Below, piece after piece: positions 3,745 through 61,834 of a stretch of DNA of 64,000 nt. The notes below the pieces were generated by a model. That model was not told the origin of the DNA, ran no database searches, and worked only from the letters and a program-made list of their open reading frames with translations. Position 1 is the first letter of the stretch, and each line of letters opens with the position of its first letter. The stretch is from contig JBFMAF010000033.1 in the NCBI GenBank assembly GCA_040755995.1, positions 32,001-96,000 of the forward strand. The letters are read 5' to 3'. Source of the DNA: Acidobacteriota bacterium (GTDB lineage: Bacteria > Acidobacteriota > CAIWXX01). A program made the position numbers and the translations under genes.

Positions 3745-6549
3745 CTACCTCACAGTGAAGCGATATGTCTTCGAGCGCGTGCGGCCGTGCTCGTTGTAAG
3801 CAGTCACACGCCAGTAGTAGGTGGTGCGGCGGTTCAGCCCCTTGAGCTCGTACTCAGTGCCGGTGATTCCGTTCACCTCTGCGAAGATCTTGCCCTTGCG
3901 TGAGCCTTCGCGCACTATCAGGTCGTATCCGTCGACACAGGAGCTTTGCCACTTGAGAGTCACCGTCGTGCGTGTTCTGCCGTGGTTCGCCGGGGAGATG
4001 AGCTCGGGCTTGTCCGGCGCGTCTTCGCACTCTCCGGGCGCGAGCGCCTTCGTCGGGCCCGCCCACTCGGATCCGCCCTCGTTCCTGACAGCCTCGACCT
4101 TGTAGTAGTAGGTCTCCGATGCGGTGATCGTCGTGTCGTTGAACGAGTAAGTCGCACCCTGGTGGGAGCTGCCTGTGGACTCGATGAGGTCGGCGTTCAA
4201 CTTGGTATACTCGCCGTTCCGGCTCGTGCTGCGCCATACGTTGAATCCGAGCACGTCCCTCTCCGTTTGAGTCTTCCATTCGACGTCGACCTGGGTTGGG
4301 CCGACGATCGTTGCCGTGAGCGATACGATGGTGGCAACAGTAGGTCCGTTCAGAGTCCATGTGCCGTTGCCGCTCACGCGCTTTACTACGATATAGCAGC
4401 CTTCGGTGGTGGATGCCGTATAGTCGATGCTTTCGTCGGTCCCCGACCCCGCGTTGGTGCTCGACGCTCGTATGACCGGGTTGCCTTTCGAATCGGGCGT
4501 GGCGGAATAGACGTACAGGTCGAAATCGGCCGTGGCCGGGACGTCCAATGTCAACACGGCCCTGTGCCCGGAGGTTAGGCTCGAGTACCTCCCCCAAGCG
4601 CGCCGGTCAAAGGCTCCGCCGTTGGTGGAGCCGTTGATGCTGCTTCCCGTGTACTGAAGCATCACCGCTTCGATCGCCGCGTCGGGATTGATCATCCCGT
4701 AGCCTTCGAATCTGTCCTTGGGCGTTGCCGCTCTGCCGAGGGTGGGATCAGAGCCCGAGCTTGCTTCACGGTTCGCGTTGCTCTCTGTCGCAGTGGCACA
4801 CAGGAGCATCTTGACCAGCAGGGGATGGGTGCTGGAGCTGAAACTCCAGGTCAAGCCCTTCTGCTGCAGCGCGTCAATCACAAGGGCGGCAGCACCTGCA
4901 GCGAATGGAGATGCCATGGAGGTTCCCTTGATGTTGTAATAGTCGTGCGCCGCCACGTCGGAGAAGCTGGTAGTCAACGCGTCGGCGTCGTTCGAATCCA
5001 CCGACAGTATGAGGGCGTAGTAGTCGGATCCTCCGGGCGCCATGACGTCCGGCTTGTTGTCCTCATCGGCTTCGGGGCTAAGAAAACCGCTGCTGGTGTA
5101 TTCGGTCAGCTCGTTAAGGGTATTGCCTGCGGCGACCGTGAGCGCCTTGGCTGCCCTTCCAGGATCATCCACGAGATTTGCGTTCGCAGTCCCGGGCCCA
5201 TCGTTTCCGGCGGAACAGACGGCCACTATGCCGTTATCGACCATCGTATTCACCTTGGTGCGCTGTGTAGTGCTGATGCCCGGGTCGCCGATCACCCCGA
5301 TGCTCATGTTGACTACCTTGATGTTGTGGGTGGTGCGCTGAGTCACCACATCGTCCATCGCCTCTCCGATATCGACGCCGCTTCCAGTTCCGGCGTTGGT
5401 GAACACCTTGAACCCCGCCCATCGGCAAGACGGCGCGACACCGCTCAAGGCGTTGAACCCATCTCCGACGACGGAGTAAGTCACCGTGTGAGCGCCGGCC
5501 CAATACGTATTGGTTCCGTTGGAATTCACCGTGCCCGTGTAGTGTGTCCCAGATGCTGCCGTGAAGTTGCTGGTCCAAGTGAGGGGCGAACTCCCTGATG
5601 TGCCGCTGATGAGAGTGTAGGGAGCGGCGTCGCCGTCAGGGTCGTACCGATGACGGACAAGGGTGGTCCCACCGCCGGCCCAGGTACCGACTGTCGTCCA
5701 TGCGATGCTTGAGCCCGCTGAGAGATGGATCGGGCTGGGTGAGTAGTACCCAGACGGTAAGCCGGTCCAATCGCCACTGTCGGTGAATCGAAGCTGTGTC
5801 GGCGTGGCGGCGATGGCGGCGCCGGTGCCCAGGGCGATGCCGGTGACATGGGTCCCATGCTGGATTATGTCCCTGGGATTCGCCTCGGCATCCGACGTCC
5901 AGTCCACCCAGTACTCCTGGCGTCCGTTGAGGTCGGTGTGTGAATCGTCGATGCCCGTGTCGATAACGCCTATGGTGATGTTCGAGTTGCCGTCGAAGCC
6001 GGCAGCACTTCCAGCGAAGCCCGATACCCAAACGGGCCTGACTCGGCCGTTCTGGGTTGCTTCCTTCAGGTGCAGCTCCGCTGGATGATCGCCGACCACC
6101 GCGACCAGATTCGCTCCCATGGCGGCGGGCAGTTGTTCCACGCTGCCGATGGCGATCCGGCCGTTCCAGCCGTAGCTGACGGATTGGTAGATATGCTCGA
6201 TGACACCGCCCATGGCAGTGAACCTGTTGATCTGATCCTGTGTGATCTGTTCCGCGAAGACGAGCTCGATACGGGCGATTTCCGCCAGTGCCTGAGTGCG
6301 TTCAGCGGGCTGTGCGAGCTTTCTCGCTGCGGAGAGCTTGTCATCTATCAGATCGTCGATCTTGTTGAGGTCCCGGTCGTCAGGCCCCAGGTCGGCGATA
6401 ATCGGTCTCACCGCGGGCTCGGGCGGAGCGACCAGTTCTTCAGGAGGCAGCGCCCGGTCAGCTGCCTGACCGACTAACGTGCCCGCGGAAATCAGAAATG
6501 AGAATGCGACAACGAAGAAGACGATTCGACGCTTGGTCATGCCCCTCAC
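3745..6549 (-). CDS. Secreted S8 (subtilisin-like) serine protease with PPC-like, Ig-like and FN3-like C-terminal domains
   Basis: Signal peptide; catalytic triad VIDTGID / QHGTHVTG / GTSMASP; oxyanion SAGNDG; C-terminal YYWRVTA FN3-like domain. Confidence 0.9.
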   Translation of the reverse strand: MRGMTKRRIVFFVVAFSFLISAGTLVGQAADRALPPEELVAPPEPAVRPIIADLGPDDRDLNKIDDLIDDKLSAARKLAQPAERTQALAEIARIELVFAEQITQDQINRFTAMGGVIEHIYQSVSYGWNGRIAIGSVEQLPAAMGANLVAVVGDHPAELHLKEATQNGRVRPVWVSGFAGSAAGFDGNSNITIGVIDTGIDDSHTDLNGRQEYWVDWTSDAEANPRDIIQHGTHVTGIALGTGAAIAATPTQLRFTDSGDWTGLPSGYYSPSPIHLSAGSSIAWTTVGTWAGGGTTLVRHRYDPDGDAAPYTLISGTSGSSPLTWTSNFTAASGTHYTGTVNSNGTNTYWAGAHTVTYSVVGDGFNALSGVAPSCRWAGFKVFTNAGTGSGVDIGEAMDDVVTQRTTHNIKVVNMSIGVIGDPGISTTQRTKVNTMVDNGIVAVCSAGNDGPGTANANLVDDPGRAAKALTVAAGNTLNELTEYTSSGFLSPEADEDNKPDVMAPGGSDYYALILSVDSNDADALTTSFSDVAAHDYYNIKGTSMASPFAAGAAALVIDALQQKGLTWSFSSSTHPLLVKMLLCATATESNANREASSGSDPTLGRAATPKDRFEGYGMINPDAAIEAVMLQYTGSSINGSTNGGAFDRRAWGRYSSLTSGHRAVLTLDVPATADFDLYVYSATPDSKGNPVIRASSTNAGSGTDESIDYTASTTEGCYIVVKRVSGNGTWTLNGPTVATIVSLTATIVGPTQVDVEWKTQTERDVLGFNVWRSTSRNGEYTKLNADLIESTGSSHQGATYSFNDTTITASETYYYKVEAVRNEGGSEWAGPTKALAPGECEDAPDKPELISPANHGRTRTTVTLKWQSSCVDGYDLIVREGSRKGKIFAEVNGITGTEYELKGLNRRTTYYWRVTAYNEHGRTRSKTYRFTVR

Positions 6550-6769: not shown

Positions 6770-7030
6770 ATGGGTATGGCGAACTCTTACACTACCAGAG
6801 AAATCGGCTCCGAATTGCTTCTGTATGATGCCGAGACTGATGAGGTGCACGTTCTCAATGCCACCGCGCGGCTGGTTTACGAATTGCACCAGATGGGGAG
6901 CACGCCGGCCCAGATTGGAGAGGTTCTCAGGAGTCGGTTCTCCCTGGGCGAAGAAGTCGACGTCCTCGGCGACGTCGTGGGTTGCCTCGACGAGCTGCGG
7001 AAAAAGGGCATGATCGCGTCCGAGGCGTAG
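6770..7030 (+). CDS. Stand-alone PqqD family (RiPP recognition element) protein
   Basis: 86 aa; ELLLYD..TDEVHVLNATARLVYEL...DVVGCLDELRKKGMI is a typical PqqD pattern. Confidence 0.85.
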   Translation: MGMANSYTTREIGSELLLYDAETDEVHVLNATARLVYELHQMGSTPAQIGEVLRSRFSLGEEVDVLGDVVGCLDELRKKGMIASEA

Positions 7031-7080: not shown

Positions 7081-7542
7081 TCAGGAGCTGAGAGCCCTGC
7101 GGCAGCGGCTTGCTGAAGCCAGCGCTCCAGCCCACACTAGGCTCATCAGTGCAAGCATCGGATTCAACCATCTCCACGGTATGGCCCGCATCCTGAGTAT
7201 CCGGTCTCCCCTGTGGATGGCATCGACCGTGCCGACTACGCGATCTGCGTCCACCCAGCTCCACCCGTGCTGATTATCTCCCCTCTGGCAGACGCGCAGC
7301 GCGCCGCTCGTTCTCGATTTTCGGACGAGCCGGTGGACAACGAGGCTCCCATCGTTCCAGAAGGCGAGGATATCGCCTCTGCTAGGCTCCTCGGGATGCA
7401 CCAGCCGGATGTCCACGTGGTCGCCCGGCCGGATCAGCGGCCACATGCTCCGCCCCGCGACAGGCACCGAGACCATCCTCTGCGCGTCTCGATAGCTCCG
7501 CAGAATGGGCAGCGCGTACTGAACCGGGCTCTCTTCGCGCAT
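7081..7542 (-). CDS. S24/S26 family (signal peptidase-like) peptidase
   Basis: GRSMWPLIRPGD (Ser), LVVHRLV (His), RGDN motif; no N-terminal TM anchor. Confidence 0.85.
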   Translation of the reverse strand: MREESPVQYALPILRSYRDAQRMVSVPVAGRSMWPLIRPGDHVDIRLVHPEEPSRGDILAFWNDGSLVVHRLVRKSRTSGALRVCQRGDNQHGWSWVDADRVVGTVDAIHRGDRILRMRAIPWRWLNPMLALMSLVWAGALASASRCRRALSS

Positions 7543-7547
7543 CCTAC

Positions 7548-10367
7548 CTAGTCCCTGCGCTTGACGGCCAGCTCGGTGGCCGTGTCTCCGAGAAGCGTGA
7601 AAGTCTTCACCAGGTCCTCGGTGGCACCTCGAGCGTACGCCTTGATCCTCGATTGCGTCGTGATCTGGCCGAGGCCCTTCCGCCCCTGTTCGAATATCGA
7701 CGAGAAGACCTCTTCTCCGAGGAAGCTGTGTTCCCAGGAGTACCCCAGACCTGTAGGCGCGAAGCTCGCGACGGCGCCCTTGCTGTGCGCCACCACGAAT
7801 TCCTCTCCGAGCGAGTCGTAGTACGGATTGGAGAAGTACCCGTTCAGGCAGTCCAGGGTCATCACGAAGGTGAGGTGATCGTTGTTCTGGAGCGATGCCA
7901 CGTCGGCCGAATCGAAAAGCCCCTCTCCCGTCCAGATCGTGACATTGGCATGCCCGACATAGTTAGTGATCACCACCCCTGAGTCGATATTCGCGATGAT
8001 ATCCTGTGTCGCCTGAGCCGTCGACGAGTATGAGCCCAGATACACCCTGCGCGGCTCATATCGAGAGGGCAAGAGGCCGATCAGCGTCTCGTTGATCTGC
8101 TCGAAAACGGACTCGTAGTTGTCTGCGGCGAAGAGCGCTGTCTTTGGCATCGAATCCGCGGCGGCCTGATAGCCGGATACCTTTCGCACGAGCGAATCGG
8201 CCGAAGAAGCGTCCTTGGCGGACAATCTTCCGATGAACATGTCCGGGAGCGAGTCGTTTCCGTCCACCGCGACATACCAGTTGTCATCGGGTGTTATGCC
8301 CAGCTCGGAGGTGATGGACAGATGCACCGGCACCAAGTTCTTGGCGCCCGTGAGGAAGTAGTCCCTGTAGTCGGTGTTCGCGTCCCCGAGTAGAACCACG
8401 TGGGTTGGCGCGGGCTTTCTCCACCTGCGATAAGCATTGGCGAGGAAATCCTTGATGGCCTGTGGATTGAAGATGCCATAGTTGAACTCGTTGTAGATGT
8501 CATCGACGACCACCGACACGGTTCTCAGCCCCTGTTTCTTCCGCAGCTCGCACAACCGATCTGCTGCCGACTTGAAGCCGCGGGGCGATATCACGATGTA
8601 GTCCGCGCTGTTCCTCCGCGACTTCAAGTTCGTCGCGCGCCAGAATGTGACCTCGTCCGGAACCCGCCGGCTCGCCTGCGCAGCCGCCCAATATCTCTTC
8701 TGTCCCGCGAGGTCTGTCTCGAACGATACCTTGGACGCCCGGCCCGCCGCTCCAATCTGCAGCCCAGTCACCTCTTTGACGTCACGGGGGTCGCTGATGT
8801 CGAAAACCGTGGCGTCCGGACTGAGGTTGGCAACTTCGAGGAGATACCGTCCTGCGCCTTCGACCGTAAACGCCAACTGATCTCCGACCGCCTCAAAGCG
8901 CCGTTTGTATACAACCTCGATCCAGTTGAGCAGAACCTGATCAGTCGACGCACCGGGGTCCTTGATGAGCTGAACAGTCAGCGTATTGGCCCCACCGAGC
9001 AGCAACGCCGAGGTCGCGGTCATCTCCTGAGTGTGGGCTATGGTGCCAGCCCAGTATTCGTCGCTCAACAGCGTTCCGTTCAGCGACACCTGGGTATGGT
9101 GCACACCCGTGCTGTAGCCCCGATAGCAGACCCGCACGATTGCCCCGTAGGCTTCAGCGGCCGGCCCAGGTACTTGAAGACCGTAATTCTTCGTCGCCTG
9201 CGACGTGATTCGTTCCCAGAACCAGTAGTCCTCTTCGGTCGCCCCCGGCGTGCCTTCCCACACCCTGTGATTCTCTTCGACGTGAAGCGTGTCCCAGAAG
9301 GAGCCCAACGGCGTGCCGAGGCCCGTCACAGAGCCGTCCACTGTGTCCATCCTGGTTCCGGAATTCCCACCCCATTGGAGCCAATAGACGTTCGTGTCCG
9401 TGAATTGATCGTCCAGTCTCTCGGCGTAGAACTCCAGGTAGTCCCCGTTCCGGAACTTGCTCGAAGACCGGCTCACCAGCTTGAATGCCACCTCGTTCCC
9501 CTTGTTGGTGAGGCGGAAACTGGAAGGATTGATGCGCCTGGCGATTACGCCAGCGTTCCTGAGATCTCCATAGCCAACTCTGTAGATACCGGCCTGCTTG
9601 ACTCCGATCTTCAGCGCGTCGGCGAGCGGCCGCGACTCGTCTGTCTCGGAGCCCGGTTCGAGACCGGGCGCCGGCGCGGAGAGATCCGCGGCATCGTAAT
9701 TGATCACAGCATCATCCAGCAGCTGCTCAAATGCGCCATCGGCGCTCGGCGTTGGCGCGGCAGCAGGCTGGTGCGGCCCGGGGCCGAACGAGACTTCCAC
9801 TAGCATTCTCTGCGACACGCGGAGCTCCCTCGTGGATGGATTCCACTGGATGGGGTACATGGTCACCCTGCGAACGGGCACCCCGCGCAGCCATTGCACA
9901 TCCGAGACATCTGCAGTCTTTCCCGGGTAGAAATCCGGCTGGCCATATACCGATGCGTCTCGCACATGCTCTGTAAGCACGGCGCCCTTCTCACCCAGCC
10001 TCAGGCGCGGTACCGAGCCGACCTCCTGATCGGGGTAGGACTCATGGCCCTGCTCGACAACGTGCAGCACAGCCTCGCTATCGGGCGGGACCCGGATCAG
10101 GACGCTTCGTACGGGGAGGTCGGGATGGCCGGGTGTGGCCACCGAAGCCCAGCCCTCTACTCGGACCTTCTGATACGGGCTTCCGCCGGCGTCATAGAGA
10201 GTGTCTGATTCGACGCGCGGCGTCGCAAGCTCGATCGTCAATCCCGATTCTGTCTCCGAGAGCAGCCGCACGTCTTCATCGGCGAGCAGAGGATACGCAA
10301 CCATCGCAGCCGCTGCCAGCTGAGCAACCGCGAGCGTCTTGAGATTATCGATTCGCACATGTGTCAT
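7548..10367 (-). CDS. C25 family (gingipain/PorU-like) cysteine peptidase with propeptide
   Basis: Propeptide-like N-terminus (GHPDLPV), ADYIVISP, DIYNEFNYG, VVLLGD, DNWYV, IGRL, catalytic NYVGHA and TLDCLNG, LLGD at the end. Confidence 0.9.
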   Translation of the reverse strand: MTHVRIDNLKTLAVAQLAAAAMVAYPLLADEDVRLLSETESGLTIELATPRVESDTLYDAGGSPYQKVRVEGWASVATPGHPDLPVRSVLIRVPPDSEAVLHVVEQGHESYPDQEVGSVPRLRLGEKGAVLTEHVRDASVYGQPDFYPGKTADVSDVQWLRGVPVRRVTMYPIQWNPSTRELRVSQRMLVEVSFGPGPHQPAAAPTPSADGAFEQLLDDAVINYDAADLSAPAPGLEPGSETDESRPLADALKIGVKQAGIYRVGYGDLRNAGVIARRINPSSFRLTNKGNEVAFKLVSRSSSKFRNGDYLEFYAERLDDQFTDTNVYWLQWGGNSGTRMDTVDGSVTGLGTPLGSFWDTLHVEENHRVWEGTPGATEEDYWFWERITSQATKNYGLQVPGPAAEAYGAIVRVCYRGYSTGVHHTQVSLNGTLLSDEYWAGTIAHTQEMTATSALLLGGANTLTVQLIKDPGASTDQVLLNWIEVVYKRRFEAVGDQLAFTVEGAGRYLLEVANLSPDATVFDISDPRDVKEVTGLQIGAAGRASKVSFETDLAGQKRYWAAAQASRRVPDEVTFWRATNLKSRRNSADYIVISPRGFKSAADRLCELRKKQGLRTVSVVVDDIYNEFNYGIFNPQAIKDFLANAYRRWRKPAPTHVVLLGDANTDYRDYFLTGAKNLVPVHLSITSELGITPDDNWYVAVDGNDSLPDMFIGRLSAKDASSADSLVRKVSGYQAAADSMPKTALFAADNYESVFEQINETLIGLLPSRYEPRRVYLGSYSSTAQATQDIIANIDSGVVITNYVGHANVTIWTGEGLFDSADVASLQNNDHLTFVMTLDCLNGYFSNPYYDSLGEEFVVAHSKGAVASFAPTGLGYSWEHSFLGEEVFSSIFEQGRKGLGQITTQSRIKAYARGATEDLVKTFTLLGDTATELAVKRRD

Positions 10368-11514
10368 GACTGTCCATCCAATCCAGGGTACTCAGTACTG
10401 ATTCTACTTCAAGATCAAGCCTGCCGGGCGAGAGCCGGTAGCTCCGGACGCCCTCCAGCAGAGCGTTCAGCTCCATGAAAAGCTTGCCGGGCTTGCGCCC
10501 ATCACCTGTGAAGTGGGCCGCAGTCTCCCTCTTCATCTCGCGAAGCAGATAGAAGCAAGCCTCGTCGTTCCGCATCCGAGACAGCACCGGCATTCGGTCG
10601 AAGTCGTGAGCACTACTGGTGACTCGATGAGCGTCCCAGATGTCATCTCTGTGTCTTTCCAGAATCGCGGAAATCCGCCTCGTCGACTCCGGACTCCGGG
10701 CGTAGCGTATCTGATACTCGTTTCCCCATTCGTCCCTTTCGACGACAATCACATGGTCCAGCGCGGCGAGCTCGGAGAGAATCGGCGCTTCCTTCCCGAT
10801 TCGAATTGCCATTCGAAGCTCTTCCTCACGCGCCGGCTCCTCAGCCGGCATGAGACAGATCAGCGATCTCAAACGGCAGGCCTCACGCACGAGCGGCAGC
10901 TCCAGCTCGTCGGGTTTCATGGGTGTCTTGTCACGGCGAGCGGCAGACTCATCTGGCACCCTGCTTCCGCGGTCGCCGGCGATCACATCCCTCGACCTTA
11001 TCCAAAGCCCTCGCGGAAACGGATGCACCAATCGCGTCTTCCTGTTGATCGGGGCGAAATCGTCCGAGAGGAAACCGAACCCGTTCTCCACAAGCCTCAA
11101 GGCCAGGGTTGTCTTGCCCGATCCGGGCGGCCCGCTGATCGCGATCGCCTCGCGTTCCCTCGCTACTACTGCTGCATGCAAGATGAGGTAATCGGAAGCA
11201 GCGCCCAGGACCGCCCTGCTGATGTTCTGGAATACGTAGGCCGCAGGGAAAGGCCGCCCGTCTCTCGGGCAGGGCGTTCCGTTGATCTTGAGGAATGCGG
11301 CGCTCGGGGACCGTTTCGATTCGAACGACAGCGAAATCTGAGGCTCGCCAGAGAGGCACGGCAGCGCACAGAAGCCGTACTCCTGATCGAGCCGCTCCAG
11401 GAGGGGAACCGAATCTGAGCGGATCTCGACTGAGACGTCCAAAACCCGGTAACACCTTGACGCCCCACTGCGCTCAGAAGGCGTCGGCCGAGCCTCGCCT
11501 GATACAGCGCGCAT
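10345..11514 (-). CDS. HprK-related P-loop kinase
   Basis: ILHAAVV, SGPPGSGKTT, FLSDDFAPI, VHPFPR are the HprK-like kinase signature. Confidence 0.8.
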   Translation of the reverse strand: MRAVSGEARPTPSERSGASRCYRVLDVSVEIRSDSVPLLERLDQEYGFCALPCLSGEPQISLSFESKRSPSAAFLKINGTPCPRDGRPFPAAYVFQNISRAVLGAASDYLILHAAVVAREREAIAISGPPGSGKTTLALRLVENGFGFLSDDFAPINRKTRLVHPFPRGLWIRSRDVIAGDRGSRVPDESAARRDKTPMKPDELELPLVREACRLRSLICLMPAEEPAREEELRMAIRIGKEAPILSELAALDHVIVVERDEWGNEYQIRYARSPESTRRISAILERHRDDIWDAHRVTSSAHDFDRMPVLSRMRNDEACFYLLREMKRETAAHFTGDGRKPGKLFMELNALLEGVRSYRLSPGRLDLEVESVLSTLDWMDSHDTCANR

Positions 11515-11516
11515 GC

Positions 11517-12875
11517 CTAGTCCGCCGAAGACGCGCGATCGAACTTGTCGAGGATCCGGTCAAACGCGAGCTGGTAGGCCCGCCTGCGATAGTTGCAGAA
11601 GGCGTCAGTTTCGAAGATTGTCCCGTGGTTGTCCAGCGCCTGTCCCATGCATCCCGCCTGGCACAAGTTCTTCCACGTACACGGCCGGCACCTTTCTATG
11701 GTATTCCGACGGCTAGCGAGTGCCTTGCAGGTCTCCATCATCTTCGGTGAACGAATCAAGCGGGAGGTGCCGTCATCGATCACGTTTCCCAGCTTGAATT
11801 CGTCCCGCATCATCAGCACGCAAGGGAACGCATCACTATCGACCCCGATGACCAGGGAGTTGCCGACCGGGCACCAGATCCCATCGCTTGTGTCGGGTTG
11901 GGGCATCTTCAAGATGAAGCCGCTCAAGCCGCAAGTCACCGCCACAGAGCAGGCCGCGTCTCTCGTACCAGGCCGGCTGAGGTCGAACAGACTCTCATAG
12001 TCTTCGATCTGCATAGAAGCCCCCACCGATTGCCAATGCTTCTCAGCATTCCCGACCTTCCTCAGGGGGAGGAATCTGACTCTCGGGATCCCGAGACGTT
12101 CTGCCAGGCCGACGATACGCTTCTGGTCATGGAGATTCTGCTTCATGACGGTCGCGGCCAGCGTGATCATATCTCCCAGGCCGGCATTCTGGAGACTTTC
12201 CAGCGCCTGCATTGTTCGCTTGAAACTGCCGCGGCCCCGGATGGCATCGTTTGTCTCTTCGTCCGATCCGTCGAGACTTACCTGGATGGCCGGCCTGATC
12301 TCACCGGCAAGGAAGGAGGCCCAATCTTCGTCGATCTGAGTACCGTTCGTGAGTATCTGTATGCCTGTCTTCCCCACCGCGTGTTTCAGGATAGGTACGA
12401 TATCAGGATGGAGCAGCGGTTCGCCTCCGCTCAGCGTAACGAGCTCGCCTCCCTCCTCCGCGAGCTCGTCGATCAGTCTGATGACCACGGCCGCCGGAAG
12501 GTCGGCATTCGAACGGGACGGATAGTAGCAATGCTGGCATGGAAGGTTGCACCGTGTGGTCAGATGGATGAAGAGAGCCAGCAGACTTGGTGACCTCGAT
12601 GGCGCAGTCGTGTCGCAAGGCGTGAAGCCACACCTTTCGAGTTGCAAGGCAACCGCTCGCACATCTTGGTGTGCCACGTCTGGAGGCAACTCGTACCTGT
12701 CGCTCAAGCAGAGAGCCACGTCCTCCGGCGGCTCGCCGCGCATGAGTCGCTGCGCGATCTCTGTCGCGCTGTGATTGGCGACAAACCACTCCGGGCGATG
12801 CGGATGCAGAATGACCTCGCTCCCGCCTCGTCTCTCGCTCCCCGTCCGAGGCGGATAGAGCAGAGGGCGCGCCAT
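11517..12875 (-). CDS. Radical SAM/SPASM peptide maturase with N-terminal RRE-like domain
   Basis: CNLPCQHC, SGGEPLLH, SLDG, SPASM cysteines (CPVG..PCV..CRPCTWKNLCQAGC..FC); start taken at MARPLL just after the precursor stop. Confidence 0.9.
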   Translation of the reverse strand: MARPLLYPPRTGSERRGGSEVILHPHRPEWFVANHSATEIAQRLMRGEPPEDVALCLSDRYELPPDVAHQDVRAVALQLERCGFTPCDTTAPSRSPSLLALFIHLTTRCNLPCQHCYYPSRSNADLPAAVVIRLIDELAEEGGELVTLSGGEPLLHPDIVPILKHAVGKTGIQILTNGTQIDEDWASFLAGEIRPAIQVSLDGSDEETNDAIRGRGSFKRTMQALESLQNAGLGDMITLAATVMKQNLHDQKRIVGLAERLGIPRVRFLPLRKVGNAEKHWQSVGASMQIEDYESLFDLSRPGTRDAACSVAVTCGLSGFILKMPQPDTSDGIWCPVGNSLVIGVDSDAFPCVLMMRDEFKLGNVIDDGTSRLIRSPKMMETCKALASRRNTIERCRPCTWKNLCQAGCMGQALDNHGTIFETDAFCNYRRRAYQLAFDRILDKFDRASSAD

Positions 12876-12880
12876 GGAGC

Positions 12881-13096
12881 TCAACCGGGCCTGGGTCTCC
12901 GCTTGTACTTTCGCTGATAGGGTGTAGCAGGGTTGAGTGTGCAGGTCGGAGAGCCGGTGCATGCCAGGGCAGGTCCGATCTGCTCCAGGATCTGCTCGCT
13001 CGTGTACGTTACGATTCTCGGTGCGACATACTTGGGCGGGTCCTGCTCGATCTCTTTTTCAGCATGAGTGCATTCACGCGGATCATCTGGAATCAT
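12881..13096 (-). CDS. Putative RiPP precursor peptide
   Basis: 71 aa, RBS ggggaggg; YVAPRIVTY leader (YxxP RRE-binding type), then EQILEQIGPALA and Cys/Thr/Pro-rich CTGSPTCTLNP; directly upstream of the radical SAM gene. Confidence 0.75.
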   Translation of the reverse strand: MIPDDPRECTHAEKEIEQDPPKYVAPRIVTYTSEQILEQIGPALACTGSPTCTLNPATPYQRKYKRRPRPG

Positions 13097-13483
13097 CTTC
13101 CCTCCCCACTATCCTATTCCCCGGGAACCCAGCCCGTATTCTGCACCAAGCGGAGGATTTTTTCCAGAGGGTCATTCATTTCATTTCGATGATCGATTCA
13201 TCCGTGTGGACACCCGCCGGTTTCCAGTCGTGGCGGAGAATGGCGGGAATCGTCCTGATTCCGCGTTTGCACTAGTGGGAACGAAACACAGGTGTGGGGA
13301 GAAGCAGGCAGAAATCCGGCGGCGCAACGTGGGTCTAGCGCGCGCGATCGGTTGTCGAAGAAAAGAGTGGCGCGTTCGACAGCGTTGGCGCTCGATGTGT
13401 ACTGTGAGAGGCACATCGGGAGACGAGCCAATCCGGCCGAACAACATCCAGGTGATGCAAGCCTGGCATAGAAGGAGGAGCAC

Positions 13484-14704
13484 ATGGCAGGTCCAGGTCC
13501 AGTGGGCACCAAACCCGTCGTGGTCCCGCCGGCCACCCAGCAATCAGGCGCGGTCACCAAGGCAGGGACGAAGAGCACATCGCCATTCACTCTACCGGTC
13601 CTCGACGAGACGAAGCTGGGGAAAAGGATCGACGAGGCATTCAGTCGATTCGACCTGAGTGGGCTGCAACGGACCAAATCGAGCGCCTCCTCCCGGGGGT
13701 CTCAGGCCGTTTCAAACACCAAGGTGGAGGACAATGCCGGTCCCGAACGCACCGTCACGGTGAGGGACAGGAGAGGCAACGCCTTCCAGATCGAGTTCAC
13801 ACCGAACCCAAAGAGCAGCAAACGAATCATCGGCGACCACGCGCTCTCGAGGAACGCGATGATCTCGATGATACAGAAAAAGGGAAAAATGGCCGAATGG
13901 GACAAGCTCGACAAACACGACATCAACGGCGTCAAGAAGTTCATGGACCGCATGAATCTGTCGACCGAGGACAAGGTCAAGTTCGTCAACAACTACCTCA
14001 CGAGTTTCTACAATCATCCTGGCAAAGACATAGCATGGAGGGGCAACCCCCCTCTCCAGGACGCCATCAACGCAGTTCCCGTGGACAAACAGGGCAGAAA
14101 GTACCTGGACTGCGAAGGCTACACCAGACTCGCCGGACACCTCCTCGGAGAATCGAAGGTCAACCACTATGCTCTCGACGCCGAGGGGAGTGGAGGCCGC
14201 GATCACCAGGTGGCAGTCTTCCGCGAGGGTGGCAAAGCCTACGTGATCAACAATAATCAGATCACCAAGGTGGATGCTTCTAACTCAGACGCGGACGCAA
14301 TACGCGAGGCGCATCCGGGCCACAAGGACATCGTGCGCGATACATCCGGCCCGATGGCTTATGGCACCGAGATGTACAAGAAGGGCCAGAGCATCCACGG
14401 CTCAATCCCACATGCGCACGTCGACCGAATCGTCGACCCGAAGACCATGATCGGCCAGGTCAACGACCCGAGACGGGGCAGCTACCACATCAAGATCTCG
14501 GTCGATCCCGGGACGGGAAGACTGAGCAGGAAGATGGACCTCCGAGCCGGCAACGAGCTCAGGGACACGGCCGGCAATACGATCACCATCACCAAGAGAA
14601 ATCCAGATGGCACGTACCAGGCCATGAAAGAAGACAGCCGCGGGCGGTTCACACAGGTGTGCGTAACCGTTACTCCGAAGGGCGACAATTGGAGCTGGCG
14701 TTAG
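13484..14704 (+). CDS. Hypothetical protein with a transglutaminase/papain-like Cys-His-Asn motif set
   Basis: RBS aaggaggag; LDCEGY...DHQVAVF...AYVINN; low-complexity N-terminus. Confidence 0.55.
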   Translation: MAGPGPVGTKPVVVPPATQQSGAVTKAGTKSTSPFTLPVLDETKLGKRIDEAFSRFDLSGLQRTKSSASSRGSQAVSNTKVEDNAGPERTVTVRDRRGNAFQIEFTPNPKSSKRIIGDHALSRNAMISMIQKKGKMAEWDKLDKHDINGVKKFMDRMNLSTEDKVKFVNNYLTSFYNHPGKDIAWRGNPPLQDAINAVPVDKQGRKYLDCEGYTRLAGHLLGESKVNHYALDAEGSGGRDHQVAVFREGGKAYVINNNQITKVDASNSDADAIREAHPGHKDIVRDTSGPMAYGTEMYKKGQSIHGSIPHAHVDRIVDPKTMIGQVNDPRRGSYHIKISVDPGTGRLSRKMDLRAGNELRDTAGNTITITKRNPDGTYQAMKEDSRGRFTQVCVTVTPKGDNWSWR

Positions 14705-30616: not shown

Positions 30617-31717
30617 TCAATCTGTAACCGGACTCAGCCGATCGCTGTACCTATTGGAGGTGGCGAATAGTCCGGGGCAACTTGCCCTGACCACACACCC
30701 TTCGCAGAGAGGCAAGAAGGCCTTCTTCCACCCGGAAATCGAGTCTCTCGCGAACGGCCGAAGTTCCTCAGGCAGAAGGCACAGAGGCAGGTTGTAGATC
30801 GAGACACGGAGATCTCGTCTGGAGAGATGCTGGACCGCCAACTTCAACTGGGAGACGTATAGGACGGGATCGATCCATACACGTTCCACATTCAGGCGGG
30901 CGAGCCCCGTCACCTCAACTCCCATGAAGGCGACATGAATGGCGAAGGGGAAGTTCCTGTAGATGAACTCTGCGAGCTGCGGCAGCCGCTGGTAGTTCTC
31001 CCTCAACACAACCACTCTCACCTCGACCTTCTGCTTCAGAAGGGCCAGATTGTGCAGACCAGCGACCGTTTGGTTGAAACCGCCGGTCACCCCTGTGATT
31101 TCGTCATGGATGCGATCCACGTCACTGAGGAGTGAAATGCAAAGTGTGAGACGGGGGTGGTCAGTGGCCACAATTCGCCTGCAAACCTCCAGCTGATGGA
31201 ATGCGATGCCGTTAGTCAGCAAGTAGCTCTCCGCTTCGGGGAATCGCGTCTTGCAGGCATGGATCAACATGCACAGCCAATCCAATCGCAAGGTGGGCTC
31301 TCCACCGCTCAGAGCGATGCTCGCAACGGATTCGCCGGCAGCCAGGCGCAGAATCTCCAAGTTTAGATTCAGCTGATCGGGTGCGTCCCTCCTCGGTGGC
31401 TGAGGGCACATGACACACCTGCAGTTGCAGGTGTTCGTGACCAGGATGCAGTTGTGTATGGTCCCGGCTTCCCATACGACGGTAATCGGGCCGTCCGGAA
31501 GAATCAGGACCACGTCGCCGCTACGTAGCTCGGACGCGGCTGGTGTGCTGAGCTGCGCCACGCATGCCTCCGGCTCCCCCTTGTATGAAGCGTAGAACAG
31601 GCGCTCCTCGCACATGACGAGGCTCGGTTCGATGTCAGCTGTTGGACCCGACCTGGTTGTTACACGTGCCAGAAGCGGGCGTTTGAGCCCGACTGCTCTC
31701 CCGTCCAGCCGCCTCAC
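30617..31717 (-). CDS. hxsC: His-Xaa-Ser system radical SAM maturase HxsC
   Basis: VTNTCNCRCVMCPQPP, SGGEPT, YNLPLCLL, SISGWK, C-terminal CEGC..C.G. Confidence 0.92.
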   Translation of the reverse strand: MRRLDGRAVGLKRPLLARVTTRSGPTADIEPSLVMCEERLFYASYKGEPEACVAQLSTPAASELRSGDVVLILPDGPITVVWEAGTIHNCILVTNTCNCRCVMCPQPPRRDAPDQLNLNLEILRLAAGESVASIALSGGEPTLRLDWLCMLIHACKTRFPEAESYLLTNGIAFHQLEVCRRIVATDHPRLTLCISLLSDVDRIHDEITGVTGGFNQTVAGLHNLALLKQKVEVRVVVLRENYQRLPQLAEFIYRNFPFAIHVAFMGVEVTGLARLNVERVWIDPVLYVSQLKLAVQHLSRRDLRVSIYNLPLCLLPEELRPFARDSISGWKKAFLPLCEGCVVRASCPGLFATSNRYSDRLSPVTD

Positions 31718-33158
31718 AACTTGACCTCGGCGTAGGACCTGTTAGTCAGCCAACTCCAGAGAACATCTTGGATCTCCTCGTCTCCCGAGCGGATCAAGGA
31801 GAACAAATGGTCGAGGATTGCCATGTTCTTCTTGCAGAAATCGCTCGTGGGCCTATGCCCGACGAAGTCCCCGTGTTCGGTGTAGTATCGGACAGGGTCC
31901 GCTCCGCAGTAGAGTTGATAGGCGCACCAGGCGCAGCCCGGAAGCGTCTCGACACAGGAATTGTATGTAAGCTCGCGCACCCGTCGCCCGCCGAATATCT
32001 CTTCAAAGGCGTGCCCGTGGACATTGCCCAGGGCGAACCGGGTGTCGCCGGAACGTGCGAGCATCCTGCCTTCGTCACTGGCATAGACAGTGCCGTCGTA
32101 ATCATAGACGACGCCGCTGATCCCGGCGCCGGAAGGGGATTGGAGGTCCACAAAGCCAGTGGAGAACGGCGTGAGGATACGCCCCAGGAGCAAGGTCGTG
32201 TAGTACTCGGCGAAAAATCTGCCGCGCACATTGAGCTCGATCACGTACGCCAGTGCCTCTTTGTACGCTTCGATGAACGCCTCGATCGGATAGGCGAGTC
32301 TCTTCCACTCTGCTCTTGCGAATCCATATGGGTTGAGCGTGCGCAAGAAGACACCTGGAAACCCGAGTCGGACATAGTGCTCGATGACCTCGCGCAACGA
32401 ATGCAGATTCGAACGCGTGATCGTGAGGAGTGGGGAACACGCCTCCATTCCGTTGATACTACGGGCCGCCTCGAGGTTTCGGATGAACAAATCGTACGTA
32501 CTCGTCCCGTTTCTGCTTTTTCTGTGGACGTCGTGGAGATTCTTGGGCCCGTCGAGCGATGTCGAGATCCAGACTCGATGATCTCGCAGGTATCGGAGTT
32601 GATCCTCGGTCACCTGTGTCAAGTTAGTACAGAGCACGAACTCGACCGTCTTGCCGACCTTCGAAGCTTCGTTCCCCGCGCGCTCCACGACGTAAGTCAG
32701 GACGGGCCAGTTGATGGTCGGCTCCCCACCCTGGAATTCGATCTTCACCCGGCGGGCTGGTCCCCGGAGGATCATCTCCACTACACTTCCGGCTGTCGCC
32801 TCGGACATGTTCAAAGCCACTTGCCCGGGTGCCACCGTCGAGGCGTGGCAGTAATCGCACCGACAATTGCAGCATGCTGTCAGCACGACGATGTGCAGCG
32901 TCGTGAAGTCCCGAAGGAACGCTTTGCGCGTCCGGAGCTTCGTGGCGAGCATCGAGACTGATAGTCCGATATCCCCGTCGCAGACAAACTGCTTGCTCTT
33001 CAGATCCAGGAACACTTCCGATCCTGTGTCGAGAGCATCAGTGAGAAGGGCCTCGAAGTTGTCACGGGATACGAAGTGGAACTCCCCGCCCTGGTTCACG
33101 ACCAGTACGTCACCATCCGGCTGGCGGCGGAACGTAAACGGGAGTAGGGTGTAGCCGC
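31714..33158 (-). CDS. hxsB: His-Xaa-Ser system radical SAM maturase HxsB (start unresolved because of A9 run)
   Basis: CNCRCDYCHAS, KIEFQGGEP, FVDLQSPSGAG, YASDEGRML, CAWCAYQLYCGADP; frame continues upstream of GTG 33099 through GYTLLPFTFRR. Confidence 0.9.
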
Positions 33159-33512
33159 CTAGAGTTTTTTTTTCTCGACTGGCGTGGATGGGACCCGGGC
33201 AAATGCATGCTCGTAGATCGTTCTCCGCAGAGCGCCGCTTCGGCTATCAAGATCCAGACGGATCTGCTGGTCGAGCACCTCGTTACAGAATTCCAATGCC
33301 ACCTTGCCCGTGTCCAGATTGTCGGGGACATCCCCTTTCGCCTGGAAGAGAACCTCCATCCGACCGTCTCCCGATTCGAGCAGCCGAATTGCCCATCGAT
33401 CTGTGAACCTGTAGGATGCCGCCACTACGGCCTCCCTATGGTACAGCGAGAGGGGAAACCTCACAGCGATGCGCCCGGGTCCCCGCTCGATCAGGAAATC
33501 CTCGTATGGCAT
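33159..33512 (-). CDS. hxsD: His-Xaa-Ser system protein HxsD
   Basis: LYHREAVVAASYRFTD...EFCNEVLDQQIR..L...LRRTIYEHAF. Confidence 0.9.
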   Translation of the reverse strand: MPYEDFLIERGPGRIAVRFPLSLYHREAVVAASYRFTDRWAIRLLESGDGRMEVLFQAKGDVPDNLDTGKVALEFCNEVLDQQIRLDLDSRSGALRRTIYEHAFARVPSTPVEKKKL

Positions 33513-33525
33513 CGAGCCCCCGGGA

Positions 33526-34698
33526 TCACGGCACGACGTTGATGGTCACGGACACGGCAGCGGAATCCGCGAACCCGTCGTGTACCTTGAACTCGAAACT
33601 GTCCGCGCCTACATAGCCCGGCTTCGGGGCGTACGTGAGTTTCGGCGATCCAGTTACCCCCGAGAGCTTTCCATTCTTGGGGCTAGTCACGATCAGATAT
33701 GTCAGGTTATCACCATCCCCGTCCGTGCCTCCCAGTAGTATCTCCCTGGACATGTCCTTGATCACTGTGATGGTAGCTCCCTCGGCCATCGGCGGTCGGT
33801 TGTCGCGCACTTGAATCGTGACCTTGGCCGTGTTCGATCCCGTTTTCCCGTCCTTTGCCTTGAACGAGAAGGAATCCGGGCCAACATAGTTGGCGTCGGG
33901 TGCATACACCAAGTCTGGGGCCGTCCCGGTCAGTTTTCCGTGAGAGGGGTTCGAGGCTGCCTCGTAGGTCAGTTTGTCACCATCGACATCCACAGCCGCG
34001 ATCCTCACGTCAGTCTTCTGTCCCTCTAGCACGACCACGTTCTGACCCAACGCAACGGGTGGATCGTTGACGGGTTCCACCGTGACCGACACCGTCGCCG
34101 GTTGCGAATCGACCTTCCCATCGTTGGCTTTCAGGGTGAACCGGTCAGGGCCGTTGGAGTCCCGCGCGGGTGTATACAGAACGGTCTCCGGCGATTGGAT
34201 GTCCACGATTCCATGTGACGGTGGATCCACAACCCGCAACGTCAGCCGGTCTCCGTCGGGATCATAGGCCTTCACACTGAGAATGGTGCGTTCATCCTCC
34301 AGGATCCTCACGTTGGCATCCCCCACCGTGGGCGCATGATTTGGACGATAGGTAGTGGCAGGAGGAGTTGAAGGCGCAGGGGTCGAGGGGCCAGTGGTAC
34401 CGGAGTAGTGCGAAGCATGGGAAGCATGTGACCGATGGGACGCATGAGACCGGTGGGAAGAGTGGGATGAATGGGATTGATGCGCAATGAGCCACGGGGT
34501 TGAGAATTCATATAGGGTTCGTGCATGCTCAAGATAGAGTTTGTCCTCCTCGCTCGACTGGCCCCGTCGTAGTAGGATGGCGGCGGGTGCCAGGGCGGTG
34601 GGAGTCGCTTGCGACGGCTGACGCGATGCCGTGCCGACTCCGAATGAACCAAGAACCCCGATGAATGCACTCACGAAGGTCTTCCAGAGTTTCCTCAT
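33526..34698 (-). CDS. hxsA: His-Xaa-Ser repeat precursor (HxsA-like) fused to three cadherin/Big_9-like Ig domains
   Basis: Nine HxS triplets (34402-34482), Pro/Thr linker, three repeats starting NHAP/NDPP/NRPP with D.DGD.LT and GPDSF.FK.DG motifs. Confidence 0.85.
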   Translation of the reverse strand: MRKLWKTFVSAFIGVLGSFGVGTASRQPSQATPTALAPAAILLRRGQSSEEDKLYLEHARTLYEFSTPWLIAHQSHSSHSSHRSHASHRSHASHASHYSGTTGPSTPAPSTPPATTYRPNHAPTVGDANVRILEDERTILSVKAYDPDGDRLTLRVVDPPSHGIVDIQSPETVLYTPARDSNGPDRFTLKANDGKVDSQPATVSVTVEPVNDPPVALGQNVVVLEGQKTDVRIAAVDVDGDKLTYEAASNPSHGKLTGTAPDLVYAPDANYVGPDSFSFKAKDGKTGSNTAKVTIQVRDNRPPMAEGATITVIKDMSREILLGGTDGDGDNLTYLIVTSPKNGKLSGVTGSPKLTYAPKPGYVGADSFEFKVHDGFADSAAVSVTINVVP

Positions 34699-41647: not shown

Positions 41648-42109
41648 TCAGGCGACATCGATCAGCGAGGCCGCGATCCGTGCGGCCTCCTGCGTGATCT
41701 CCCGGCACTTCGTTTCACAGTCGTGTTCCATGAAGAACCGCTGTCCCTCGGAGGTGTTCAAGTCGCAGCCGATCAGCTCGCGACAGTTGGTCGTGCCAAA
41801 GCGCTCGCGGAAACGAGCCAGCAGCAGCTGGACCTTCGCATAGATCGGCTCGAGATCGCCGTCGGGAGTTGAACGCCCGTACCTGAGCCCGAGCGCCAGG
41901 ATGGCCCCGCTGAGCGCTCCGCACATGCCGCACGTCCGCGAGACGCCGCTGCAGAAGCCGCTCGCCATACGCGGGATCAGCTCGCTCTTGATCCCCATCT
42001 GCTCGGAGATCGCGAGGAGCACGCTCTCTGCGCAGTAGAACCCGGACCTGAACAGATCACCCGCCCTGCCCGATGCGGAGCATCCGCCACGAAGCTCGTC
42101 CTCAGACAT
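41648..42109 (-). CDS. C-GCAxxG-C-C family redox protein
   Basis: FYCAESV, CGALSG, TNCREL, KC. Confidence 0.9.
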   Translation of the reverse strand: MSEDELRGGCSASGRAGDLFRSGFYCAESVLLAISEQMGIKSELIPRMASGFCSGVSRTCGMCGALSGAILALGLRYGRSTPDGDLEPIYAKVQLLLARFRERFGTTNCRELIGCDLNTSEGQRFFMEHDCETKCREITQEAARIAASLIDVA

Positions 42110-43235
42110 CTGCTCCCTCCTTCACGTTGAAGTACCTTGCCTGTGGGTGGTGAAAGACCAGTGCGCTGACGCTTGCCTCCGGGTCCATCGTGAAGCCTTC
42201 GGTGACGCGCACGCCGATGTCTTCGGGCTTCAGCAGCATCCACAGAGTGTCCTCGTCCGAGAGATTCGGGCATGCAGGATAGCCGAAGCTCACGCGAAGC
42301 CCGGTGTAGCTCGCCTGGAACAGCTCCCGCTGCGTGATGTCCGGCTTGTCGGCGATGCCCCACTCGGAGCGAAGTTGCTGGTGGAGCTTTTCGGCAAATG
42401 CCTCGGTCGTCTCCAGCGCCAGTGACTGGAGCGCGTGCGAAAGCACGTACTCGCCGCGCTCCTTGAGCTGCAAAGCCAGCGGCCGGATCCCCAGACCGCA
42501 GCTCACGACGAACATCGCTACGCTGTCGCGGCCGGCCGCCGCGGGCCCGACGTAGTCGGAGATGCAGAGCCCGTCTGGCTCGGCCTGCCGTGGGAACGTG
42601 AACCGCGTGAGCTCCTGATCGGCTTCGTCATATAGGATCAGATCGTTGCCTTCGGAATTCGCAAAGAAGAACTGGACAACACCGCGGGCCTTCATCCATC
42701 CCTGCTCGGCGCGGCTCTTGACATCGCGCACCACGGCATCCAGCTCGCGGTACTTCGCGTCGCCGCTTTCGGCCAGGCGTTCGACGCTCCCACGGAGCCC
42801 GAGGTGCTTGCCGTAGAGCATCTGATGATTCAGATAGGGCCAGAGCTCGGTGACATCCGCTTTGATGATGCGCCGGGCAAGGGTCGGGGGGCGCCGCGGT
42901 GGCACCTCCGCTATCTTCCGCGAGCGAGCTGCGCCGACTGCGATCGAAGGCGCTGCAGTCGCCCGCGACGCCTGCTCCAGGGACGTGGTCTCGGCGGCAA
43001 TCGACCGCTCCATCCCCGCGCGCTGATCCGGATCGATCAGCCGATTGGCGATGTCCAGACCGCTCATCGCATCCTTGGCATAGACCACGGTCGAACCGTA
43101 CGCGGGGCGGATGCGCGCGTACGTGAACTTCTTGGTAAGCGCGGCGCCGCCGACGACAACCGGTGTCGTGATCCCGGCTGCGCGAAGATCCTCAACGGTC
43201 GTCACCATCTGCTGCGCGGACTTCACTAGAAGCCC
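42102..43235 (-). pseudogene. metH: Diverged duplicate of the metH 3' part (half of the B12-binding domain plus activation domain)
   Basis: About 90% aa identity (36 differences over ~367 aa by hand count) to 58428-59539; begins mid-motif at GLLVKSA. Confidence 0.9.
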
Positions 43236-43340
43236 CTAAAGGCACCGTTCAACCCGACGGAGATCATGCCCGAATGCTCGACGGAAGCGTAGAACGCGTA
43301 GGTATTCTGCCAGACCGGCATGGTTCCTGTTGGTGATGAG

Positions 43341-43403
43341 GGCCAGCGCGCCGACGCTCGTTTCGGGATCCATCATGAATCCTTCGATCAGGCTGAGGCC
43401 CAT
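43341..43403 (-). repeat. Third, short metH 3' fragment
   Basis: Encodes EGFMMDPETSVGAL versus EGFMMDPEASVSAL at ~58462-58523. Confidence 0.75.
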
Positions 43404-43404
43404 C

Positions 43405-44706: not shown

Positions 44707-44778
44707 CTGAGCACCTCCTCAATCGTGACGGCCCTCCCTCCTTGGTGCCGAGGGTACCGGGCCGTGCGATCCTTAGAC

Positions 44779-49172: not shown

Positions 49173-49176
49173 GATC

Positions 49177-49473
49177 CTATCCCGCCACCCCGGAGCTTCT
49201 TGGACCGGCCCGCCTCGTCTTCGATCCTGCTGAGTGCCTGTACAACACCTTCAGGACGCTCTGGACGTCGCCGGGCACAGCCGACATCCGTTCAATCACC
49301 AACGCCTCGGAGAGTCGGGCGTGAATCTTCCGGTTCTGCAGCTCAGTCCGAACGCGTGCAAGGAGTTTCTTGGCATCACAAAGCTCGAAGCCGTCGCCCC
49401 ACTCGGCATTCAGGATGCTCGTGGCTTCCCGCGTTGCCTTCACATAGTCACCGCGATACTTCGGGTCGTCCAA
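49177..49473 (-). CDS. Small hypothetical ORF or gene remnant between pglX and pglZ
   Basis: 98 aa, TTG start after gggagg; no recognisable domain. Confidence 0.35.
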   Translation of the reverse strand: MDDPKYRGDYVKATREATSILNAEWGDGFELCDAKKLLARVRTELQNRKIHARLSEALVIERMSAVPGDVQSVLKVLYRHSAGSKTRRAGPRSSGVAG

Positions 49474-49488
49474 CTGACAGCCTCCCTT

Positions 49489-52950: not shown

Positions 52951-53163
52951 CGATGAGTCTCCTCAGTTGGGACCTACCGCAGTGATATGGCGCTTCATGT
53001 CGGTGCTCCCCATATCTCCAAAGGCCGCGGATCCAGCTGGCGTCCCCGAACCGATGAGGGTCACAATTGCTCTTCTTTGGATATCAATCATTTGAGGGCC
53101 GTTGGCATCCTGGTACGACCATCCCAGTCACATATCAACTGCTGAGAGGTCATCGCGCGCATC

Positions 53164-57978: not shown

Positions 57979-58034
57979 CTCGAGAGTAGACCACCAACCA
58001 CGCTAGCGATGATCCTACGGAACCAGTCGGCCAT
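57975..58034 (-). CDS. Putative 19-aa leader peptide MADWFRRIIASVVGGLLSR
   Basis: GGAGG RBS 6 nt upstream; its TGA overlaps the brxA GTG. Confidence 0.35.
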   Translation of the reverse strand: MADWFRRIIASVVGGLLSR

Positions 58035-58090
58035 GTCAATCCTCCAGGAGAAGCAGCCACCCCGCCGGCTAGTTTGCCGGCGCCATGCAT

Positions 58091-58119
58091 ATCCTATGGC
58101 GCAACCATGTTTTGGTCAA
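58091..58119 (-). promoter_or_regulatory. Sigma70-type promoter of the BREX operon
   Basis: Minus strand TTGACC-17 nt-TAGGAT with an AT-rich upstream tract. Confidence 0.55.
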
Positions 58120-58405
58120 GTAGTTATCTTCATTCATTTACGTTCTTTACTCATTAGCAGTAGTCTCGTCGGTTCCGGAGGGGCTAGGCAGATGGCACGA
58201 GGCCCCAGCCGTTCACCGAGCGTGTCCTCAAGGAGCTCAAGGAGTCGTGCCGGACGAGAGGTACCCAAACGCTGCCAGCCAGTGGACCTGCTCGCCCGCC
58301 GCTTCAGTAGCCTGCGAGCCTAGCACATCGCTGTTCTCGGTGTCTGGTGACAGTCGGACATCATTCGCAGGATGTGGTCCAGGGCGACAGTTTCAGGATT
58401 CGTGC

Positions 58406-61834
<3,429 letters not shown>

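Follow-up and report, generated by a model that had tools for sequence, protein, structure and literature searches.

RiPPs are known as small-molecule products, and the acceptors of sortases as cell-wall peptides, lipids or aminoacyl sugars. The locus described here touches on both subjects, and the closest characterised pathway to it is LPP (LppA/B/K/S/D/N), as described in PMC13381572. There, LppS, LppB and LppK cut and phosphorylate a precursor with a YxxP motif: an RRE presents it to the archaeal-type peptidase LppS (S29/H68/D93), whose site reads F-E-T, and the HprK kinase LppK polyphosphorylates Ser3 of the core. The same source gives the precursor consensus as YxxPxVLxHQxIxFETxxS, places LPP clusters in capsule loci and calls the function of LPP unknown; the terms 'radical SAM', 'rSAM' and 'C25' do not occur in its text. 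The second point of reference is PorU, which cuts its cargo before a folded C-terminal domain and joins it to a sugar through the amine of the Ser, Gly or Ala which that sugar bears (PMC11969387, PMC11285876).

The window, by which we mean the whole stretch of 64,000 nucleotides that was analysed, holds a real but uncharacterised system (Table 1) that works like LPP maturation joined to PorU sorting, and that departs from the defining features of both as well as from those of lasso peptides and lipoproteins. No description of such a system was found in the open full-text literature, and some of the S26 clusters might figure in Supplementary Data 1-2 of PMC13381572. What is new here is that copies of a precursor peptide gene stand beside genes for exported proteins that share one unnamed Ig-like domain, termed A3 below. 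The reading that we favour, with a confidence a little short of evenly balanced, is that the peptide is an amine acceptor, which a C25 protease joins to exported proteins after cutting them at the start of A3; it builds on the gene, the pattern of leader and core, the cassette, the intact catalytic residues, and the pairing and fusion with tail-domain proteins, all of which are directly supported, and from these we infer the covalent attachment and the export of the peptide. More tentatively still, a PorU-like sortase working outside the T9SS would ligate cargo to a radical-SAM-modified phosphopeptide that ties it to the cell surface, following a GPI-like logic.

Table 1. Features of the precursor cassette and its local candidate cargo, in positions of the window
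Feature	Positions	Strand	Basis
Precursor peptide gene, 71 aa (71-codon ORF)	12881..13096	-	sequence, profile homologues, codon-position variation
Shine-Dalgarno-like GGGGAGG	13101..13107	-	sequence; 4 nt before the precursor ATG
Leader, aa 1-45: YxxP at Tyr23-Pro26, acidic helix, GPALA end	12962..13096	-	kept in 120/120 best homologues; cut site inferred
Predicted core, Cys46-Gly71	12884..12961	-	family features are the first two to three residues only
RRE-radical SAM/SPASM enzyme, 452 aa: RRE aa 21-84, CxxxCxxC 109-116, seven invariant SPASM Cys	11517..12875	-	profile, alignment, structure matches
HprK-like kinase: His113, Walker A 128-135, SDD motif	10345..11514	-	profile matches, motifs
Secreted C25 (PorU/gingipain-like) protease with propeptide; His806, Cys840	7548..10367	-	profile, PDB match, model
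Archaeal/SipW-type S26 peptidase without signal peptide; Ser32-His70-Asp89	7081..7542	-	profiles, alignment
Stand-alone PqqD/RRE	6770..7030	+	profiles; opposite to the operon here
Secreted S8 protease, local candidate cargo	3745..6549	-	profile, signal peptide
Unnamed Ig/Fn3-like A3 domain of the S8 protein, candidate sorting signal	4030..4359	-	homologues, predicted complex
Pro-Thr-Val|Ala, aa 736-739 of the S8 protein	4333..4344	-	predicted position on the C25 catalytic dyad

A sequence-only reading had proposed the 71-codon ORF as a precursor masked by a radical SAM call over-extended to 12962, and had named two observations that would count against it: a leader not conserved next to homologous maturases, and translation of the radical SAM from 12962. 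The ORF reads exactly as quoted there and, judged by comparison with its homologues, is a genuine coding gene. A profile of 17 copies finds 295 related protein clusters, and the peptide itself has no match in Pfam or NCBIfam at E<=0.1; across the 24 leader-to-Cys codons of 27 homologous DNA copies, codon positions 1, 2 and 3 differ by 189, 120 and 396; and a loose version of the precursor motif arises 0.02 times per shuffled 64-kb window. The contrary view, that the ORF is not a gene and that the radical SAM begins at 12962, draws on the longer radical SAM frame being open, against which stand the 295 homologous clusters and the third-position bias of their variation; moreover, the ATG at 12962 is a mere junction GCA|TGC of Ala and Cys codons, the frame behind it has no conservation among homologues, and radical SAM homology begins a few residues past the ATG at 12875, 5 nt beyond the precursor stop. 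We regard this view, of next to negligible probability, as refuted by the conserved leader-core pattern and the unconserved extension. Since the leader proved conserved beside the homologous maturases and the homology runs from 12875, neither of the two observations overturns the precursor, and the call is indeed over-extended.

Alignment of the family places the functional information in the leader and the first core residues. In the best 120 of the 295 clusters, with the consensus YxPPxIxTYTSEEILEQIGPAQA|CS, position -3 is Ala in 120, -2 is Gln in 75, Met in 27, Leu in 12 and His in 6, -1 is Ala in 113 and Thr in 7, +1 is Cys in 120, +2 is Ser in 113 and Thr in 7, and +3 is Pro in 108, with a leader end of A-x-(A/T)|C-(S/T) in 120/120, an invariance that is overstated because these are the top matches of a profile holding those very columns. 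Of 142 more distant representatives, three were dropped for want of the motif anchor; of the other 139, 124 have Cys at +1, 101 have Ser or Thr at +2 and 138 have a small residue at -1. Conservation limited to the first core residues fits the expectation for an N-terminal acceptor, and the 38 of 139 distant cores with neither Ser nor Thr at +2 count against that reading. The two-Cys core of 26 residues with a strongly basic tail, on which the sequence-only reading had dwelt, proves to be a local feature, the median core in the best 120 of 295 having 10 aa and nine of these cores only 5 aa with one Cys. In the same 120, two Cys occur in 93 cores, one Cys in 27 and a basic tail in just 6, and one-Cys cores also lie inside radical SAM operons (L119, L120), so that we rejected both an obligatory two-Cys ring and the basic tail as a functional element.

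The order precursor, RRE-radical SAM, HprK-like kinase, C25, S26, PqqD recurs in metagenome and genome loci of two phyla, the first of which is probably Acidobacteriota while the second was taken as Thermodesulfobacteriota, and it bears out the earlier description of the peptide as a precursor whose YxxP leader goes together with neighbouring RRE domains. The PqqD gene, inverted relative to the operon here, is co-oriented in L002, L012, L026, L065 and L067, and the true start of the kinase may lie about 20 codons further in. Like LPP, the cassette has a YxxP leader that would bind RREs, a discrete RRE, an archaeal-type, SpI-like leader peptidase with a Ser-His-Asp triad (S32/H70/D89, intact in 15/15) and an HprK-like kinase whose motif pattern is matched by 19 of 20 distinct kinases, and it shares with LPP a conserved Ser near the core N-terminus, a variable C-terminus and a small residue at -1. 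It differs from LPP in having Tyr at -23 and a GPAxA end, against Tyr at -16 and FET, in adding an RRE-radical SAM, C25 and paired exported proteins, and in lying outside the Bacillota; the LPP leader consensus is not matched by the precursor family. By analogy with the triad of the RRE-dependent LppS (PMC13381572), the S26 enzyme is a good candidate for the leader peptidase that it had been proposed to be. The Ala-x-Ala site that went with this proposal stands as a conserved -3/-1 pattern with a free -2, but not as a rule for this S26 subfamily, where none is established; because LppS reads F-E-T, the exact A|C cut is placed by conservation.

Neither an NTP-transferase nor an MsbA-like exporter is among the window cassette genes, and reading of the cassettes revealed no conserved exporter and no gene for immunity or export, loci other than the window having been read by similarity to the window proteins and by eye. 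A lasso peptide was rejected since the cassette has no macrolactam cyclase or B2 protease and -2 is Q, M, L or H and not Thr, and a lipoprotein or DAG-RiPP since the precursor, which has no signal peptide, reaches a maximum hydropathy of 0.63 and, with Ala at -3 and mostly Gln at -2, has no lipobox. The SynChlorMet and HPr-rel-A cassettes (TIGR04249-04251, TIGR04352/04353) resemble ours in combining PqqD, an HprK-like kinase and a SPASM enzyme, with weak profile matches. All scores here lie below the cut-offs, and there is one radical SAM. To our knowledge, C25 and cargo pairing are no part of the definitions of those cassettes. By eye, precursor or A3 loci in L046, L068, L069 and L089 adjoin glycosyltransferase-, deacetylase- or chain-length-like genes, which may be compared with the capsule loci of LPP, and in the window a 406-aa protein without an informative family match is encoded divergently from the precursor (13484-14704, +).

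The leader family was found in 27 of 401 genomes of the first phylum, by a search that overlooked the diverged precursors in G371 and G128. Going by the 36 of 39 precursor copies read, 10 of the 27 genomes have cores with Cys at +1 and 17 have Tyr, Val, Met, Ala or Gly there behind the same leader. A radical SAM orthologue is present in 9 of the 401 genomes, namely in 9 of the 10 Cys+1 genomes versus none of the 17 others, counts for which few candidates were scored per genome and in which kin are not independent; in the second phylum, nine Cys+1 operon copies have the radical SAM and two non-Cys copies run straight into the kinase. The earlier idea of Cys as a radical SAM target is strengthened by this covariation, which points to Cys+1 as the residue modified, by a chemistry that is putative. 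Sister families with the same leader and Tyr, Val, Ile, Met, Ala or Gly at +1 (L038, L041-L055, L060-L064, L090, L091, L121, L127) have a kinase, PqqD and often C25 and no radical SAM, and several of their tails are Phe-rich or basic.

The product is probably a thioether, given the 7-Cys SPASM domain and a top fold match to CteB (E 1.8e-17, TM 0.58). The ranthisynthase CteB and the sactisynthases StsB and SkfB share with our enzyme the RRE-RS-SPASM architecture, a 7-Cys SPASM domain and a Cys substrate; CxxxCxxC and the seven SPASM Cys are intact in 8/8 enzymes, the latter pointing to an open auxiliary-cluster site. No known synthase family is reached by profile, the best being MftC with 133 of 265 bits and StsB with 108 of 625, and in contrast to thioether-forming RRE-radical SAM systems the target Cys is here the first core residue and may be the sole Cys. 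Formylglycine formation is the alternative, because anSME scores equally by sequence (equal-best PDB match, 3e-31). The commonest core start, C-S-P-S, resembles the sulfatase motif C-x-P-x-R, but the window enzyme differs from anSME and its SPASM features in having an RRE, only seven invariant SPASM Cys and no Asp after the second auxiliary Cys, and its core has no Arg at +5. The residues near the catalytic site (Y117/S149/L175/S200/V353/L354), mapped by motif adjacency after the method of PMC10288494, come nearer to StsB (Y/T/I/S/K/L) than to CteB (F/F/T/S/H/Q), which is a weak indication.

Judged by gene neighbourhoods, the peptide goes most consistently with a PorU-like C25 protease and with those exported proteins that share the Ig-like domain, partners that the sequence-only reading had missed. 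This A3 domain of 110 aa is Ig/Fn3-like without a specific family and starts P-T-(L/A/V)-(V/I)-x-L; none of 11 A3 domains matched Pfam, PF18962 (Por_Secre_tail) included, Por_Secre_tail was not matched in the own genome by a search whose controls gave no match either, and a below-threshold lead in the Atlas (0.85) goes to a cluster with 22% Por_Secre_tail. In the genome G404, all nine precursor copies adjoin A3-domain genes of different exported proteins, against 0.19 expected, with one pair in the training sets and one copy carrying a stop codon; in G402 one of three copies lies beside an A3 gene. Across the first-phylum sample, A3 is found no more than 1.5 kb away from 12 of 39 copies (0.07 expected); this count draws on the 150 of 171 A3 matches listed, and five of the 12 loci had been used to build the A3 profile. 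The second phylum was represented by ten new genomes with 32 copies, of which 31 were read: 14 are adjacent or fused to an A3 gene, 9 lie beside maturation genes and 8 beside neither. Pairs of cargo and precursor also occur in tandem repeats (G211, G263, G116, G665).

Pairing is incomplete, which tells against the acceptor reading: 27 of 39 copies in the first phylum and 17 of 31 in the second are unpaired, no precursor adjoins 22 of the 31 A3 genes of G404, and the A3 gene of the window is 8.6 kb from the precursor. The unpaired copies bear as well on whether the peptide is a conventional secreted RiPP, a thioether-bridged LPP-like phosphopeptide for which C25 would be a second processing protease or a fellow traveller. 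We hold this to be distinctly improbable: the second-phylum copies without an A3 neighbour, maturation genes that match the LPP logic (PMC13381572) and a 7-Cys radical SAM closest in fold to CteB would suit it, but the G404 pairing, the fusions and the predicted complex with A3 in the C25 active site (both below) would be left unexplained, and cores down to five residues, a variable tail and cassettes in which no immunity or export gene was seen do not speak for it.

In three representatives the partners are fused into one chain of signal peptide, unrelated cargo (lamin-tail, laminin-G or beta-propeller), A3, transmembrane helix and precursor, the tail alone being alike among them. The DNA of G585 holds three such fusion frames, and because their core is the same as that of one of the G585 cassettes, the fusions probably derive from one lineage, which again weighs against the acceptor reading. 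A search for longer precursor homologues gave three proteins among 7999 scored candidates and is weak, because it missed the known fusions. A junction of CTD and precursor in G009/P0264/P0265 was rejected as a fusion, having no YxxP and lying in a genome with no orthologous radical SAM or kinase, and was treated as a deletion remnant, though it is counted among the 12 first-phylum pairs. Cys-Gly precedes the helix in the fusions, and the three fusions matched none of the NCBIfam sorting-signal families. At some Desulfobacterota-type loci (L113, L132, L139, P0170/P0209/P0230), A3 is followed by a hydrophobic helix and a basic tail resembling a C-terminal sorting signal. The own genome has a second exported A3 protein (G000:C35:131782-133554, -), with an Fn3-like tail of the same kind as that of the S8 protease and no precursor seen within about 2-3 kb.

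From the topology of the fusions, the peptide would be cytoplasmic and the cargo and C25 exported, which the acceptor reading does not readily accommodate and which would suit a peptide that belongs to the C25/A3 system but stays unattached, as a modified activator, inhibitor or signal whose production keeps pace with cargo expression. Such a peptide would be released in the cytoplasm, it accounts for pairing and fusion without a transpeptidation step, and copies fewer than cargo (9 versus 31 in G404) are what it would lead one to expect. We consider it unlikely, there being no obvious need for many near-identical copies beside unrelated cargo genes, and the core chemistry changing freely (+1 Cys, Tyr, Val, Ile) while leader and C25 stay.

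In 9/9 genomes a C25 gene is found no more than 3.5 kb from that of the radical SAM. C25 occurs in 26 of the 27 precursor genomes versus 156 of 401 overall, and it stays with the non-Cys variants that have no radical SAM. A3 is found in 94 of 401 genomes, 87 of which have C25, an overlap that arises partly because giant C25 proteins contain A3. In all four such giants read, cargo, A3 and C25 form one chain, which by the logic of gene fusion is an argument for a link between C25 and A3. Since C25 and A3 are far commoner than the precursor family, many C25 systems must use other acceptors or precursor families, and this weighs against the acceptor reading, as does the failure to find C25 in G404 and G379; radical SAM, S26 and a close kinase were likewise not found in G404, so that its operon may be unassembled. 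A second related cassette of the own genome (G000:C44:44846-53902) encodes a giant C25 of 1258 aa, in which a segment faintly resembles A3 (E 0.008), together with a YxxP precursor of another kind, which has three Cys and ends in Ser, a radical SAM and kinase-like and PqqD-like proteins, with an S24-like gene upstream; the type occurs also in G018 (L087).

The complex predicted for C25 (residues 245-939, its own propeptide removed) and A3 scores 0.77 versus 0.00 for the best of three controls, above a mark that 116 of 157 solved pairs attain, as do 2 of 215 mismatched ones, counts that are only roughly valid with our own alignment. The runs agree in at least 94% of contacts, with a partner pLDDT of at least 86, and in the model His806 touches A3 residue 9 and Cys840 residue 8, at P-T-V|A of the S8 protein, where the contacted residues are the conserved P-T-L-V motif. 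The score may partly reflect likeness to solved gingipain-prodomain complexes (4IEF). Gingipain prodomains presumably bind the active site (PDB 4IEF), a binding mode on which one could also build a case for A3 serving in latency or docking, so as to block or recruit C25 as a prodomain does, the peptide having a separate role in the envelope, such as glycan priming. Giant C25 proteins do carry A3 N-terminal of the protease, where stand-alone C25 has its propeptide, and LPP clusters lie in capsule loci according to PMC13381572; we nevertheless judge this highly doubtful, given that A3 has no sequence similarity to the propeptide of this C25, that many exported proteins with no relation to each other (31 in G404) carry the domain close to their C-terminus and that the model lays an extended conserved motif across the dyad. 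The best PDB match of the C25 protein is PorU (E 5e-13), with which it shares the His-Cys dyad (H806/C840, intact), a predicted cut just ahead of a folded C-terminal beta-domain and the proposed logic of an amine acceptor; it differs from PorU and the T9SS in using a signal other than Por_Secre_tail, in having as its proposed acceptor a peptide made by the ribosome where PorU uses an aminoacyl sugar, and in keeping a gingipain-type propeptide.

To return to the acceptor reading, its steps could run as follows. The RREs would bind YxxP; the radical SAM would modify Cys+1, probably to a thioether; the kinase, by analogy with LppK, would probably phosphorylate or polyphosphorylate the Ser or Thr beside Cys+1; and S26 would, with good probability, cut A|C and free an N-terminal amine. 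Outside the cytoplasm, C25 would probably cut the cargo at P-T-(L/A/V)|(V/I/A) and form a thioester, and the peptide amine might then resolve this thioester, a tentative step after which the cargo would terminate in a phosphopeptide, and this could be linked to a glycan or lipid of the surface. We favour an acceptor because the peptide is short, would have a newly freed amine, a modified first residue and a probable phosphate, and comes in copies tied to cargo. In its favour are the pairing, tandem repeats and fusions of precursor with A3 cargo, the C25 link with a predicted complex that sets the dyad on the A3 motif, and the analogous precedents of PorU (PMC11969387) and LppS/LppB/LppK (PMC13381572). 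Against it are a precursor without a signal peptide, no conserved exporter being seen in the cassettes read, and the operon L139, which has no kinase. The sequence-only interpretation was right in part.

A RiPP that is genetically paired, and sometimes fused, with exported proteins points to a role in protein sorting. Were the acceptor reading true, it would add a new bacterial way to tag or anchor surface proteins, explain why PorU-like C25 is so common in the phylum (156 of 401 genomes) and identify a new sorting domain that is cleaved, its cut site being predicted. Orphan phosphopeptide pathways, LPP among them, would gain a role that can be put to the test. Its best-supported part, the modelled recognition of A3 by C25, lends itself to a direct assay and might yield a new peptide ligase.

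Elsewhere in the window lie two further systems. At 30617-34698 (-) there is a His-Xaa-Ser system with two radical SAMs, HxsB and HxsC, that score above cut-off. The gene ahead of them encodes a protein of 390 aa in which an N-terminal leader-like segment is fused to tandem-95/Big_9 Ig repeats, a possible protein-sized substrate. At 42102-61834 a BREX type 1-like island comprises BrxL, PglZ type B, a PglX-like protein, BrxC and two small genes; it is flanked by a methionine synthase-like ORF of full length (58406-61834) and by a second metH 3' part (42102-43208), a position that suggests integration into metH.
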